A stretch of 64,000 nucleotides of DNA from contig OZ244650.1 in assembly GCA_965218785.1 (NCBI GenBank), forward strand, positions 1,824,001 through 1,888,000, given 5' to 3'. The translations under genes and the position numbers were made by a program. Below are positions 24,900 to 32,173 of the stretch, in pieces. Under the pieces are notes generated by a model. That model worked only from the letters and a program-made list of their open reading frames with translations, was not told the DNA's origin and did no database searches. How positions within the stretch are numbered: position 1 is the stretch's first letter; every line of letters begins with the position of its first letter. The DNA comes from Nitrosopumilus sp. (GTDB lineage: Archaea; Thermoproteota; Nitrososphaeria; Nitrososphaerales; Nitrosopumilaceae).

Positions 24900-24973
24900 T
24901 GCAGTCAGCGGGATTCGAACCCGCGTCACAGGGTTGGAAACCCCGAATACTAACCAGGCTATACTATGACTGC
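24900..24973 (-). tRNA. tRNA-Gly(TCC)
   Basis: GCAGTCA/TGACTGC acceptor stem, anticodon arm CGGGG-TTTCCAA-CCCTG, GGTTCGAATCC T-arm; no intron; CCA not encoded. Confidence 0.96.
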
Positions 24974-26839: not shown

Positions 26840-29491
26840 TTATCCGGAGGTACAACCGCTGTATCCGCATTCAATACAGATACTGCATCCTTCCACAAAG
26901 ACCAGGTTGTTTTTGCAGGTTGGACATAAGCGGTCCTCTGAGACATTATCCTGTTTTTGAGGTTCGACTTTGATCTCTTCATCGTGCACTTTAAGCGCAA
27001 GCGCGGCATTTACCTGGGATTTGATATACGGATTTGTGATGTGTTTCTTCACATAATCAGTAATGTACTCAGTTGGTAGAACCTCGAATGTTTTTTCTGC
27101 ATTTTGACTTGTCATGTGAAGTACCTGTTTATGTCTAGAGCCATCACGGTATACGGTGATTCCCTTGAGTCCCATCTCATGTGCTAACAGATATGCAGAT
27201 TTTACATCCTCTGCAGTTACATCGTATGGCATGTTGATTGTTTTTGCAATTGCATTTCCAATCCATTCCTGCCATACACCCTGGGCCATAAGATGATCAG
27301 CCCAGTGGATATCCATTGCCGTAACAAAGACATCTTGCATCCATTGTGGGATCTCTGGGATTCCCTTCAATGAGCCATAGTTGTCAGCAATCTTTTCAAG
27401 AATTTCATCGTTGTAAATATGATTTTCTTTCAGGACTTCCTCAACTATCTTGTTTGTATAGAAGAACCTTCCAACAGTTACTCTCTTTTCAAATACAAGG
27501 GCAAATGTAGGTTCCATTCCGTTTGAACAGTCAGCAATCATGGATAGTGTGCCAGTTGGAGCGACTGTGGTTGCCAGGACGTTTCTGATACCATATTTTT
27601 TGATTTTTTCAATTAATGCATCCCATTCGTAAGAGTGGAATTCCTTTGGTTTCTCATAGTATCCTGCCACCGGAATCTTTCCTTCCGGATATTCAGTCTT
27701 TGAACAAAGTGGGAACTCGCCGCGGGATTTGGCAAGGGCGACACTTTCTTCCATGGAATAATACGTCAGGGCCTCGGCCAGTTTTGATTGCAGATCATAT
27801 CCTTCTTTGGAATTGTATGGAATTCTTAGCTTGTACAGGAGATCTGCTACTCCCATGACTCCAAGTCCGATTCGTCTGGATTCCTTTGATGCCACGTTGA
27901 TTTCTTTGACAGGATAGGTATTCACATCAATGATGTTATCGAGGAATCTTGTCGTCTTTCTGATGGTCTCCTCATATCTTTGCCAATCAAATTCAAAAGT
28001 TCCATCTGCCTGTCTCTTGACAAGATTTACCAGGTTGATGGATCCCAGATTGCATGATTCGTATGGATAAAGACTCTGTTCGCCGCAGGGATTTGTTGCT
28101 CGTAGTGGTGCCTGTCTAGCTTTTGCAAACACGTTGTATTTGTTAATTTGATCAAAGAAGATCAATCCGGGTTCTGCGCTTTTCCATGCAGATAATGCAA
28201 TCAGATCAATTAACTGATGTGCGCTGATTTCTTTAACCGGTTTTTTGTCACGCGGACTGCGTAAAACATAGCTGCCATCTGTGGTATTGACAAGTGAGTG
28301 CCAAAAGTCCTCCCAGATACCAACACTTACGTTAAAGTTTTCCAAAACGCCCGGTTCTGTTTTGTTTGTGATGAATTTCTCAACATCAGGATGCCATGCC
28401 TCAATAATGCCCATGTTTGCACCGCGTCTTTTTCCCCCCTGCTTTACAACTTCAGTCACGGTATTGATGATATTCATAAATGATACCGGACCGGATGCTA
28501 CACCAGAGGTTGATGCGACAATATCGCCTTCCTCTCGTAGATCAGAGTAGTTAATTCCCACTCCTCCTCCGGATTTGAAGATCAATGCCGCATCAGAAGT
28601 CGACTTCATGATTTGTTCCATGCCGTCTTCCATTCCAAGTACAAAACAGGCTGAGAGTTGTCCCAGTCTTCCACCGGCATTCATCATTGTTGGCGAGTTT
28701 GGCAAAAAGTCCTGTGATGTCATTAGCTCAAAGTACTCTGTTATTTTGTCTTCATAACTATCAAGATTCTTTGCCGCCAACAACATCAGAAGATCCTTGA
28801 AACTAACTTTCATCTGGTTTTTCTTTGCAAGTGCCACATAGTGGTTGATCAAAGATCTAAAATGCCACTTGTTGAGATAGTAATTTCCCACCTTGAATTT
28901 ATAATCAAACGCATCTAGTTTTTCAAGATAAGACTGTGCTTCGTCTATATCTTGTGCTGTGGTTCCAGATTTGTCAAAGATTTGTGAGTCATAGAGAATA
29001 TCACCGATTCCGACTAGAATTGCGACTCTTTCAAACATTTGTGTAGGGGACTCTATGATCTCATTTTTGCCATTTCTGAAAAGATATCTTGATGCCAAGA
29101 CTCTCAGGCAGTTCAGGTCAAACTTTTTAGAAACAGGATCAAGGGACTTTAGATTCAGGATCCTCATTTTTTCGACCCTTAGTTTTCTTCTCTCCTGTCT
29201 ATACAGGATAAACGCTTTTGTTATATCGATGGGGCCGCTACTCATCAGGGTTAACTCTACCATATCCTGAATGTCCTCGACAGTAGGTGCCCTAGAGCTG
29301 GTAAATCCCTGTTCTACGAGTTTGTCAACTACGTTATCTGCGAGTTGATCGGCTAGACCACGATCGGCTTTAGAGGTGGCTGCCAATGCCTTGAAAATGG
29401 CATTTGAAATTTTGTCTTTATTAAAAGCCGTTACTGCACCACTGCGCTTACGGATTTCGTTGATAGTACTTTCTATTTGTGAATTATCCAA
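26840..29491 (-). CDS. nrdJ: Adenosylcobalamin-dependent class II ribonucleotide reductase with ATP cone
   Basis: ATP cone IRKRSG..FNKDKI; PNSPT, QLSACFV, ATNPCGEQ, CNLGS, APTGT, YRDGSR; C-terminal Cys cluster; no intein seen. Confidence 0.95.
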   Translation of the reverse strand: MDNSQIESTINEIRKRSGAVTAFNKDKISNAIFKALAATSKADRGLADQLADNVVDKLVEQGFTSSRAPTVEDIQDMVELTLMSSGPIDITKAFILYRQERRKLRVEKMRILNLKSLDPVSKKFDLNCLRVLASRYLFRNGKNEIIESPTQMFERVAILVGIGDILYDSQIFDKSGTTAQDIDEAQSYLEKLDAFDYKFKVGNYYLNKWHFRSLINHYVALAKKNQMKVSFKDLLMLLAAKNLDSYEDKITEYFELMTSQDFLPNSPTMMNAGGRLGQLSACFVLGMEDGMEQIMKSTSDAALIFKSGGGVGINYSDLREEGDIVASTSGVASGPVSFMNIINTVTEVVKQGGKRRGANMGIIEAWHPDVEKFITNKTEPGVLENFNVSVGIWEDFWHSLVNTTDGSYVLRSPRDKKPVKEISAHQLIDLIALSAWKSAEPGLIFFDQINKYNVFAKARQAPLRATNPCGEQSLYPYESCNLGSINLVNLVKRQADGTFEFDWQRYEETIRKTTRFLDNIIDVNTYPVKEINVASKESRRIGLGVMGVADLLYKLRIPYNSKEGYDLQSKLAEALTYYSMEESVALAKSRGEFPLCSKTEYPEGKIPVAGYYEKPKEFHSYEWDALIEKIKKYGIRNVLATTVAPTGTLSMIADCSNGMEPTFALVFEKRVTVGRFFYTNKIVEEVLKENHIYNDEILEKIADNYGSLKGIPEIPQWMQDVFVTAMDIHWADHLMAQGVWQEWIGNAIAKTINMPYDVTAEDVKSAYLLAHEMGLKGITVYRDGSRHKQVLHMTSQNAEKTFEVLPTEYITDYVKKHITNPYIKSQVNAALALKVHDEEIKVEPQKQDNVSEDRLCPTCKNNLVFVEGCSICIECGYSGCTSG

Positions 29492-29526
29492 TTATAATCT
29501 CCACGTAAGGGGTATGATGAATGTGG

Positions 29527-29576
29527 TTATAACTGATTCTGAAATTAATTCCTCAGCAACGGTTCAATAATATTGA
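29527..29576 (-). promoter_or_regulatory. Candidate nrdJ promoter (TTATAA 29527-29532) and upstream palindrome TCAATA-A-TATTGA (29564-29576)
   Basis: TATA-like box ~36 nt before the start codon; perfect 6-1-6 inverted repeat. Confidence 0.4.
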
Positions 29577-29693
29577 CATCGCTACTATGAAGTTCATACC
29601 GGCATAATTTTAAGGATGTACGATGATCGCTAGATCTGAAAGTGATCCAATAGTTTGGAAAAATGATCGTAACTAGTTTCACTTTCACGAATT

Positions 29694-31787
29694 TCAGACG
29701 ATATATGGCGACTTGCACTGTGGGCACTTGTCTTCAAATGGCTCGTCTTTGAAACCACACTCGCCACATATTGCAATCCTCTTTACAGGCTTGAAGGAGG
29801 GGGTAAGGGCGGCTGTCTTTTCAATTGATTTTTTGATTAAATCGACCTTTGTGTCGTTGTCAATATTTAGTGTCACGAGTAATCCCCCATTGAGCAGCTT
29901 TGATAGCTTGTTACACTCTGAGATGGATTCGCTCTTGCTGGTATAATCGGCGACTTTGGATGCGTTAATCACCACGCCCTCAGAATAAGAATCACTTTCC
30001 ATTGAGTTGAGGGCAGAATTCTTGCCATATTTCTCGCCGTCTAGACTGGCAAAACGGTGTGAGCCCTCAGTTTCAATCATGGAAATAGTTACAGGATCGC
30101 CTAGTTCCTTGCCTTTCTTGGCTGCAACATCGACTGCAGTCTCGATGACTTTGTGAAGAATGTTACGACCTTCTTTGTTGTCTGGGAATCCAAGTATGTT
30201 AAAGACTGCTTCTTTGAGTCCCACCAAGTTTACAACAAGAGAGACAGAACTTCTTTGCATGTATTGTGTATTTTTTGCAAGAATTGGATTTAGTCCCCTC
30301 CTAGTAAGATCGGAAATATCTTTTTTTCTTAATGCCATTGAAGATAGTGCGGGTTTCATTAGTAATGCAAGTCTTGCTCTAAAGTAAGTTTCATCCTTGT
30401 TTGATTCAAAAGCAAGACGTGGAAGGTTTATGGAAACTGATTGCAGTGTTATTGAAAGTGAATCACTGTTCTTTGTAGAACCGTTTGTGACGCCATAGCT
30501 AGATATCTGACCTTTGGCAAACATTATTTTTCCACCAAGTGAGAATATTTCAGCAGCTGATTCTGAAACATCGGTAATCTTTCCCTTTTCGTGATCTATA
30601 ATCAGACCGATTTTTGGAACTGGTGTTATCTTTGTATAATTTTTGTATGCATTGATAATTGAATTGATTATTTTTGTGTCAGAGCCCAGTTGTAATCTAA
30701 TTGATATGTTGGTACTTGTTTTGTTGTATTTGGAGGTTGTAGATGCAGTTGCAAACGCATTAGTCAGTTTTTGTTCGAGTTCTGGGAGGGATTTTGAGTG
30801 TTTTGCAAACAATGAAACTAGTCCATCAAGTACAATTTCTTGTGAGGCCTCCTTTGAGAGAAGGGAGATTACGATGGATAATGAGCTTGTAATTTCATCA
30901 AGTTGTTTGGATGCAGGAATTCGTGATACATCGAGGTATTTTCCGCCAAGATCAATTCCATTTTCAATCAGTTCTTTAACGTTGACAAATACTGTATCGG
31001 GAATCATAGACCAGATTCCGGGATTGGTAATATGCAAGTCTCCAGAAAGATGCGAGTCTGCAACGTCTTTTGGTAGGATGTTAGTAAGTAGTTGTTCTGC
31101 AAACACTCTCTGTCCTGCGTTAAACAAAAGACCCTCAGCACCATTATCTATGTTATCTAGGTTTGACATCATCTCTTTGACGTCATTTACAGGCATGCCT
31201 AGGCGTGCAAGCTTGTTTCTATATTCCTCATGACCGTGTTCTAGGAGAACAGAGTTTACCATTTCTCGAATAAGCGAGCCTGTCAGATAGGTAGTCTGAT
31301 ATTTGTAGATTCTATTTTCCACCTCTTCAGTAATTTTTTGCGCAAGTTCCAACGGAAGGCTTCCCTCACGAACCAGCGATTGGATGATTTTATGGGAGTT
31401 AAATTCCTCAATGGACTCGTGTGATGTCCTAACATACATTTTTCCACTCTCAATAATTGATCTTTCTTCAATTTGCCGTGCCAGGCTCAAAACCAGCTTT
31501 CCCAGATTGGTAATGGTGTAACGTCTTTCAGATTTGTTGAGTGCAACGAGGGATTGTCTTAGTAATTTTCTCAGGTGGTATGCAAATTTGCCGCTCTCTT
31601 TTTTTGACTTGAAACCGGCCAGGGACTTTAGCTCAGAATAGGTCAAAGGACCCTTGGAATTTAAAATTCGAAGTATGTCTATTCTGTTAGGACTGGCCAT
31701 TACAGAGAAGATCATTCTTACGCGTTTTGATGTGGATTGTAATATTCCGCCTCTCTTTAATTCCGAGACTTCTTCACTTAGTTCCAT
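29694..31787 (-). CDS. ArsR-like HTH + ATP cone + degenerate class III RNR (NrdD-like) fold lacking catalytic residues
   Basis: ASPNRIDILRIL..LTYSELK..FAYHLRKL; VRTS..IEEFNSHKI; HLSGDLH, SINLPRLA, VGLKEA, CGEC..CPQC; ends before any RxxGY. Confidence 0.88.
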   Translation of the reverse strand: MELSEEVSELKRGGILQSTSKRVRMIFSVMASPNRIDILRILNSKGPLTYSELKSLAGFKSKKESGKFAYHLRKLLRQSLVALNKSERRYTITNLGKLVLSLARQIEERSIIESGKMYVRTSHESIEEFNSHKIIQSLVREGSLPLELAQKITEEVENRIYKYQTTYLTGSLIREMVNSVLLEHGHEEYRNKLARLGMPVNDVKEMMSNLDNIDNGAEGLLFNAGQRVFAEQLLTNILPKDVADSHLSGDLHITNPGIWSMIPDTVFVNVKELIENGIDLGGKYLDVSRIPASKQLDEITSSLSIVISLLSKEASQEIVLDGLVSLFAKHSKSLPELEQKLTNAFATASTTSKYNKTSTNISIRLQLGSDTKIINSIINAYKNYTKITPVPKIGLIIDHEKGKITDVSESAAEIFSLGGKIMFAKGQISSYGVTNGSTKNSDSLSITLQSVSINLPRLAFESNKDETYFRARLALLMKPALSSMALRKKDISDLTRRGLNPILAKNTQYMQRSSVSLVVNLVGLKEAVFNILGFPDNKEGRNILHKVIETAVDVAAKKGKELGDPVTISMIETEGSHRFASLDGEKYGKNSALNSMESDSYSEGVVINASKVADYTSKSESISECNKLSKLLNGGLLVTLNIDNDTKVDLIKKSIEKTAALTPSFKPVKRIAICGECGFKDEPFEDKCPQCKSPYIV

Positions 31788-31941
31788 GCATTTTTCTAAA
31801 TGTGGGAGTAAATAAGACTTATGACTAGATCATTTGATATGATTTTTGATCAAATTTGTCATTAAAGAATAATAATTTGTAATATCAGCGATCTAATTTT
31901 AAAAAATTATAAAAGCGATCTTGTTTGGAGATCATTTGGGA

Positions 31942-32103
31942 TCAGTTTTCATGTACATCAAGTGAGAACTCTGATGTAGAAAGTTTTTGTCCACATGAGG
32001 GACATTTACCGCTATAAGGATTCATTACGTCTTTTAGGGATTTTAACATCTTCATGTTTGTGATCTTTTCACCACATTTGCCACATGTAATTTCTACAGA
32101 CAT
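31942..32103 (-). CDS. Small zinc-ribbon (CPxCG) protein, 53 aa (not in ORF track)
   Basis: MSVEITCGKCGEKIT...GKCPSCGQKLS. Confidence 0.8.
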   Translation of the reverse strand: MSVEITCGKCGEKITNMKMLKSLKDVMNPYSGKCPSCGQKLSTSEFSLDVHEN

Positions 32104-32173
32104 AAGTACGATCAGATATGCAAAATAATTAAGAACCAGTTTTGATTTTTTTTAATAATTCAAGCAAATTATT

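Follow-up and report, generated by a model that had tools for sequence, protein, structure and literature searches.

The bacterial repressor of ribonucleotide reductase (RNR) genes, NrdR, consists of a zinc ribbon and an ATP cone, and ThiR is a helix-turn-helix (HTH) regulator with a dead enzyme part. NrdR is rare in archaea according to the available parts of two studies (PMC9110341, PMC12176259), and because of this rarity archaeal control of RNR transcription is largely open. Among archaeal regulators, RbkR is a winged HTH fused to riboflavin kinase, an enzyme of the pathway that it controls; in the accessible portion of its description, RbkR occurs in Thaumarchaeota, and its operators are palindromic and vary between lineages, with two adjacent palindromes in Thaumarchaeota (PMC5397151). 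GlyXL, as far as the part of its report at hand goes, is a non-radical protein resembling the class III RNR NrdD, which serves glycine/glyoxylate synthesis and works in air (PMC13759103). Here we analyze a gene, labelled REG in this report, that lies directly upstream of the class II RNR gene nrdJ in a 64,000-nucleotide stretch of Nitrosopumilus sp. (contig OZ244650.1, positions 1,824,001 to 1,888,000; the window). No description of REG was found in searches of the full-text literature or in two papers on RNR evolution, while RNRdb-type supplementary tables, which lay outside this search, might list such sequences.

REG is a catalytically dead relative of class III RNR, and its architecture, selection and synteny make it the probable case of an RNR-derived pseudoenzyme serving as a transcription factor for RNR genes. 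The original prediction, made from the sequence of the window, had assigned to the protein an ArsR-like HTH, an ATP cone and NrdD-like motifs. All three were recovered by Pfam above cut-off (Table 1), with DUF7347 (40.7 bits, cut-off 27.6) and HTH_20 (32.7 bits, cut-off 27) in the HTH, ATP-cone (36.1 bits, cut-off 25.8) in the cone, and NRDD (PF13597; 91.4 bits, cut-off 26.2) at amino acids (aa) 445-693. The NRDD match covers positions 276-529 of the 562-position model and therefore stops short of the glycyl-radical end. Every quoted motif was found, namely HLSGDLH (246), YGV (431), SINLPRLA (452), VGLKEA (522), NGG (633), CGEC (674) and CPQC (688). The cone is homologous to canonical cones by Pfam and by hhalign (probability 95.1%, E 3.3e-8), but the prediction of an ATP cone has to be qualified, as this is a divergent variant.

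To describe the core, a family profile was built from 46 REG members, among which the HTH residues Y70 and H71 are invariant, and compared with solved NrdDs. It matched 9D3X (E 5e-36), 8P23 (2e-31), T4 1H78 (2e-27) and Thermotoga maritima 4COI (2.5e-26). In the profile alignment the T4 finger loop SPMGCRS falls on Y431-G432-V433, the YGV noted earlier at the expected finger-loop position, and the T4 segment TNCCLVDL falls on PDT--VFV, which contains no Cys; T265 stands where true NrdDs have a Cys. The protein ends in KSPYIV, with no R..GY glycyl-radical motif in its last 150 aa, and its Cys residues are 625, 674, 677, 688 and 691, of which Cys625 is the only one outside the Zn site, exactly as the absence of RxxGY and the single additional Cys had been read from the sequence. 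With the NrdD equivalog TIGR02487, REG scored 79.3 bits, below the cut-off of 326.35.

The same losses were followed in a residue alignment of 35 true NrdDs (29 adjoining Bathyarchaeia REGs, the other 6 taken from basal lineages within the class Nitrososphaeria), 31 Nitrososphaeria REGs and 27 Bathyarchaeia REGs. The radical Gly, the finger-loop Cys and the lower Cys are each found in 35/35 true NrdDs and 0/31 Nitrososphaeria REGs; in the Bathyarchaeia REGs the radical Gly and the lower Cys are likewise absent (0/27 each) and the finger-loop Cys is kept in 6/27. None of 80 Bathyarchaeia REGs matched the glycyl-radical pattern. Conservation in 94% or more of the true NrdDs defined 90 columns. 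At least 90% of the REGs from Nitrososphaeria retain 18 of these and the same share of those from Bathyarchaeia 34, including H246, G249, N454, P456, R457, G523, E526, D583, Y601 and the Zn-site Cys.

The activase is missing as well. No nrdG had been seen in the window, and this absence extends to the whole source genome of 1.99 Mb (97% complete), in which the best scores were 50.8 bits for NrdG2 (cut-off 131) and 36.8 bits for NrdG (cut-off 126). The best NrdG-like open reading frame (ORF) was rejected as an activase, since it scores best as QueE-like. As a positive control, NrdG2 was detected in Ca. Bathyarchaeum tardum with 216 bits, at a position away from its REG locus. Within the order, NrdG2 exceeded the cut-off in 1 of 81 genomes and in 0 of the 54 high-quality ones. 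Across the class, true NrdD did so in 8 of the 201 genomes, and families f1-f5 contain none of these 8 (the class tallies of REG and true NrdD include the unpublished genome G132, on which no other result depends). With the radical Gly, both Cys and the activase all absent, the designation of REG as an RNR pseudoenzyme is firmly supported.

The downstream gene is intact. As had been proposed, nrdJ follows REG on the same (minus) strand after a spacer of 202 bp (29492..29693), and its product scored 722.5 bits with TIGR02504 (cut-off 399.95). NrdJ is the sole PF02867 match and the only RNR of the source genome. ATP-cone matches were obtained for two proteins only, REG and NrdJ; REG is the single NRDD-like gene, no paralogue of it was found in its own genome, and NrdR (TIGR00244) had no match there.

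We then determined how widely REG is distributed. It is present in 182 of the 201 sampled class genomes and in 160 of the 161 high-quality ones. With the HTH and cone of the Ca. Bathyarchaeum tardum protein as query, the phylum sample gave a match in 108 of its 151 genomes (91 of the 133 of high quality), in open frames of 535-860 aa, and several families had no match. The family thus occurs in ammonia oxidisers, as originally framed, but this framing is too narrow for a family that is widespread in the phylum. The closest database relatives are Nitrosopumilus proteins with 87-91% identity; records of relatives are named either 'anaerobic ribonucleoside-triphosphate reductase', the mis-annotation that had been anticipated, or 'helix-turn-helix domain-containing protein' / 'HTH domain-containing protein'. 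Database matches in Promethearchaeota and Nanobdellota are leads only. A contig labelled Krumholzibacteriaceae bacterium (DATKLC010000012.1, our L127) holds a Bathyarchaeia-type REG and is probably mis-binned.

Selection acts unevenly along the protein. In the 12 closest Nitrosopumilus pairs, dN/dS was 0-0.014 for the HTH and cone, 0.056-0.20 for the core and 0.039-0.148 overall. Mean identity between the window REG and 30 class orthologues was 85% for the HTH and 78% for the cone, while the core reached 41-49% and the Zn ribbon 43%; in comparison with 27 Bathyarchaeia forms the cone was best kept (54% identity). Since the HTH and cone evolve slowest and the core is still selected, the N-terminal domains appear to be the functional heart of REG, with a dead barrel that would still be needed. 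Many Nitrosopumilus orthologues (L013-L038; frames of 713-760 aa) carry an acidic Asp/Glu-Leu repeat extension N-terminal to the HTH, which the copy in the window does not have. A subclade (P0128-P0130, P0144, P0148, L048) is without the C-terminal Zn ribbon, and at the one locus examined, L048, there is no nrdJ within 7 kb.

The vicinity of an RNR gene recurs across lineages, in agreement with the linkage first noted in the window. In 30 class loci, which were hand-picked to span genera and families and are neither random nor, where genomes are related, independent, nrdJ directly follows REG on the same strand in 20 and is divergent in 1 and convergent in 4, so that an RNR gene adjoins REG in 25 of 30; one of the 20 tandem loci has a divergent, cone-less nrdJ. 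The 80 best Bathyarchaeia/Hecatellales loci, 65 of them informative (15 have a contig end within 1.5 kb), encode a longer form of REG than the class, also without the radical glycine. Reading downstream from REG, the next gene in 29 of these loci is a complete nrdD carrying RxxGY..WN; 6 have an nrdD-like ORF interrupted by the contig end and 5 have nrdJ, which places REG upstream of an RNR gene in 40 of the 65 informative loci. In Ca. Bathyarchaeum tardum, REG (751 aa) is followed by glutaredoxin and then by true NrdD (481.5 bits). A glutaredoxin-like gene (PF00462, 36.9 bits) likewise stands between REG and true nrdD at L099:10483-10788 and in other Bathyarchaeia loci, and this arrangement suggests an operon for a redoxin-dependent class III RNR. 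As the adjacency has outlasted the replacement of nrdD by nrdJ, persists with a cone-less nrdJ and is seen in divergent and convergent orientations, it would be difficult to account for if the genes had no functional connection.

The origin of the family was addressed with a quick IQ-TREE analysis (LG+G4, 55 rows, 585 columns, SH-aLRT only), in which the root was assumed to lie on NrdDs with canonical cones. All REGs, that is the HTH forms, make up a single clade (SH-aLRT 100), sister (100) to true archaeal NrdDs whose cones start with VRTS or VRRSDGF. Because these sister NrdDs have the same cone variant, that of REG would have been inherited from a working enzyme. The Nitrososphaeria REGs group together (100); their branch is long (1.1) and arises among Bathyarchaeia REGs whose branching order is unresolved. 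The tree points to REG having arisen by duplication of a true NrdD, and the family seems to have arisen beside true nrdD in anaerobic lineages.

The spacer between REG and nrdJ contains a series of conserved elements (Table 1). Conserved blocks shared by 28 Nitrosopumilus spacers are, in order, GATCATTTTT after the REG stop, TTTTGATCAG, GCGATCATCG, the palindrome P1 as TATGAAnTTCATA, the palindrome P2 as (G)GTGTCAA-N-TTGA, the TATA-like TTTATAcc, and finally GGGGAGATTATAA with the start codon. The 1.99-Mb genome contains a single copy of P1, and every stem column of this palindrome agrees in 21 or more of the 22 aligned Nitrosopumilus spacers. A P2-like site at -92 to -102 was found in 5 of 20 tandem loci of other genomes, from five genera. 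The element upstream of REG is invariant and promoter-like. Bathyarchaeia spacers have a motif of their own, TATACAGAATTTTATAC, whose strict pattern occurs in 15/39 spacers vs 0/75 REG-upstream regions.

Table 1. Features of the REG-nrdJ locus (positions in the window).
Feature	Position	Strand	Remarks
REG gene	29694..31787	(-)	697 aa; HTH / cone / dead NrdD-like protein; "REG" is the label of this report
ArsR-type winged HTH	31488..31712	(-)	aa 26-100; predicted DNA-binding domain; DUF7347 and HTH_20
ATP-cone-like domain, 'VRTS' variant	31221..31439	(-)	aa 117-189; Pfam, hhalign
NrdD-like core without radical machinery	29769..31175	(-)	aa 205-673; family profile vs solved NrdDs
Finger-loop relic Y431-G432-V433	30489..30497	(-)	C-C here in true NrdDs, G-C in T4
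SINLPRLA motif, kept	30411..30434	(-)	N454, P456 and R457 in nearly all compared REGs and true NrdDs
CxxC..CxxC Zn ribbon	29715..29768	(-)	C-terminal; protein ends 6 aa later, no glycyl-radical domain
GATCATTTTT	29659..29668	(-)	conserved, just past REG stop; possible oligo-T terminator
Palindrome CGATCATCG	29621..29629	(-)	conserved
Palindrome P1 TATGAAcTTCATA	29586..29598	(-)	candidate operator
Palindrome P2 TGTCAATATTATTGA	29564..29578	(-)	candidate operator adjoining P1
TATA-like element of nrdJ GTTATAACC	29525..29533	(-)	34-42 nt before TTG start; read by eye
nrdJ	26840..29491	(-)	883 aa; B12-dependent class II RNR; canonical ATP cone
Promoter-like element of REG GTCATAAGTCTTATTTAC	31808..31825	(-)	conserved; about 20-38 nt before ATG

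The conserved spacer elements appear to act as DNA and not as RNA structures. An RNA element in the nrdJ leader was rejected, as RNAalifold gave -1.98 kcal/mol with no compensatory pairs or covariation in 22 of the 28 Nitrosopumilus spacers, the insert-bearing L016, L025, L035, L036, L037 and L039 being left out. Moreover, the loop of P1 would be 1-3 nt and thus too short for a stable hairpin, and Rfam detected no riboswitch in the window. In the six insert-bearing spacers the insert lies between P1 and P2 and carries a further palindrome, CCAATGnnCATTGG.

Intergenic DNA at the locus is also rich in GATC, with 8 copies in the 383 bp upstream of REG (31788..32170) and 4 in the 202 bp of the spacer; genome-wide, 9385 copies were observed and 7251 expected from base composition. 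GATC boxes were rejected as an operator for want of specificity, since a comparable density (at least 7 per 300 bp) is reached by 28 genomic regions, the REG upstream region being one of them, and TGATCAAAAA occurs 53 times. Directly upstream of REG lies a 53-aa ORF with a CxxC..CxxC zinc ribbon (31942..32103, minus strand), for which no Pfam family exceeded the cut-off; it had a tblastn match in 19 of 30 loci of other genomes. Throughout Nitrosopumilaceae, this zinc-ribbon ORF stands just 5' of REG on the same strand, giving a Zn-ribbon / REG / nrdJ unit. The sole Rfam match in the window is a tRNA gene (24900..24973, minus strand).

Taken together, these data are consistent with the following model. 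The N-terminal ArsR-type winged HTH would bind DNA, the ATP-cone-derived domain would act as the sensor, and the dead NrdD barrel would probably be a dimerisation scaffold and perhaps a second nucleotide pocket. REG would control transcription of the adjacent RNR gene, which in the source genome is nrdJ and in Bathyarchaeia would be the glutaredoxin-nrdD operon or nrdJ. The route to nrdJ would probably be the conserved palindromes 50-70 bp upstream of its TATA-like element. That REG binds DNA, which ligand it would sense (ATP/dATP or some other nucleotide), its oligomeric state and the sign of its control, repression or activation, are inferred; ATP/dATP as the ligand is an assumption, because the cone is without the canonical Lys-Arg pair. 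Most likely, REG sets the amount of the enzyme that makes DNA precursors.

Several results weigh against this model. In the cone, VRTS aligns to VRKRDG, with T-S in place of the canonical K-R, and the K-R pair of the (V/I)xKRDG motif has a role in nucleotide binding; the cone alone had no match among solved structures at E≤10. The HTH scored 23.7 bits with the ArsR metalloregulator subfamily NF033788, below the cut-off of 55, and among solved structures it bears only a weak likeness to SmtB/ArsR (E 0.25). P1 and P2 are conserved within Nitrosopumilaceae only. Neither these palindromes (0/31 REG upstream regions) nor the Bathyarchaeia motif occurs upstream of REG, and autoregulation by a shared motif is therefore rejected. 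No nrdJ was found within 7 kb in 5 of the 30 class loci, and 25 of the 65 informative Bathyarchaeia loci have no RNR gene, mostly having an unrelated convergent neighbour. Finally, an in-frame stop (TAA, TGA) lies inside the REG match of two genomes (G141:C1:40683-42650, G149:C1:1756576-1758075); these may be sequencing errors or real disruptions.

Of the alternatives, action at the protein level fares best, and yet it is unlikely. The dead paralogue would bind an RNR and tune its activity, forming a heterodimer with NrdD in Bathyarchaeia and associating with NrdJ in the source genome; the HTH would then mediate protein contacts or be of minor importance. Synteny with RNR genes fits a partner as well as a regulator, the core is still under selection (dN/dS 0.06-0.20), and NrdD enzymes are dimers. 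However, the HTH is the most conserved part of REG, with dN/dS close to 0, and the family models that it matches describe DNA-binding ArsR-type folds; moreover, the source genome has no NrdD to pair with, and NrdJ belongs to a different RNR class.

It is rather improbable that REG is a DNA-binding regulator of other targets, such as replication or a wider regulon, next to RNR genes only as a leftover of the duplication. Such a role would fit the 5/30 and 25/65 loci without an RNR neighbour and the lack of a motif common to the upstream regions of REG and nrdJ, but an adjacency kept through the exchange of nrdD for nrdJ, with a cone-less nrdJ and in divergent and convergent orientations, speaks against a mere leftover.

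A trigger enzyme, which would still carry out a non-radical chemistry and use its HTH for self-control, is very unlikely. GlyXL provides the precedent of an NrdD-related fold working aerobically without radical residues, as described in the accessible part of its report (PMC13759103), and N454, P456, R457, D583 and Y601 are retained in REG; against these stand the mere 18 of 90 NrdD-conserved columns that are left, a core that evolves much faster than the HTH and cone, the lack of a match of the family profile to the GlyXL structure 2HA9 at E≤0.01, and neighbours that are RNR genes and not metabolic genes. A truncated or decaying nrdD pseudogene confined to this genome, to which the missing glycyl-radical tail might point and which the original prediction had named as its counter-case (a local truncation among orthologues keeping RxxGY and Cys), is refuted by full-length orthologues in 160/161 high-quality class genomes, a whole-gene dN/dS of 0.04-0.15 and the same losses in 31/31 Nitrososphaeria copies, with the radical Gly in 0/31.

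Beyond the role of transcription factor for RNR genes, we tentatively consider a wider one. REG might be the archaeal counterpart of NrdR across Thermoproteota, possibly also in Asgard and DPANN archaea, with a barrel whose former specificity or substrate site would still bind (d)NTPs, so that REG would read dNTP balance beside the cone signal. Its origin could lie in a duplicated class III RNR that acquired a winged HTH and in which the radical chemistry was lost, and it might then have been kept as an RNR master switch when ammonia oxidisers swapped nrdD for the B12-dependent nrdJ.

REG occurs in almost all ammonia-oxidising archaea, a globally abundant group of nitrifiers, and is common in Bathyarchaeia. 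If the proposed function is true, REG would clearly illustrate how the paralogue of an essential enzyme can turn into the sensor-regulator of that same family, and it would have persisted through the switch from one RNR class to another. A widespread annotation would then need correcting as well, as the label 'Anaerobic RNR' in aerobic ammonia oxidisers could mislead metabolic inference on how they live with oxygen. With the candidate operators, the idea of REG as a regulator can be tested directly.

Compared with known systems, REG shares with NrdD (T4 1H78, T. maritima 4COI, 9D3X, 8P23) a homologous core, the NLPR motif and the Zn ribbon, but differs in the added N-terminal HTH and in having no radical Gly, catalytic Cys pair or NrdG. 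Like REG, GlyXL, as far as its report is accessible, is a distant relative of anaerobic RNR without radical residues; it belongs to a different family, has no HTH or cone, and its partner is an ACT-domain protein and not an RNR gene. Kinship between the two was rejected, as the REG family profile did not retrieve GlyXL at E≤0.01. The two adjacent palindromes reported for RbkR in Thaumarchaeota resemble the layout of P1 and P2, which is an analogy and not evidence; RbkR keeps its enzyme activity, whereas the enzyme part of REG is dead, and the two enzyme families are unrelated. With NrdR, REG has no whole-length homology: NrdR has a zinc ribbon for DNA where REG has a predicted winged HTH, and REG carries in addition a 450-aa dead NrdD barrel and a cone without the canonical K-R pair. 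Nevertheless, in each a cone-type domain is joined to a DNA-binding module, a predicted one in REG, both are encoded near RNR genes, and both would follow the same presumed logic, nucleotide-sensing control of RNR transcription.

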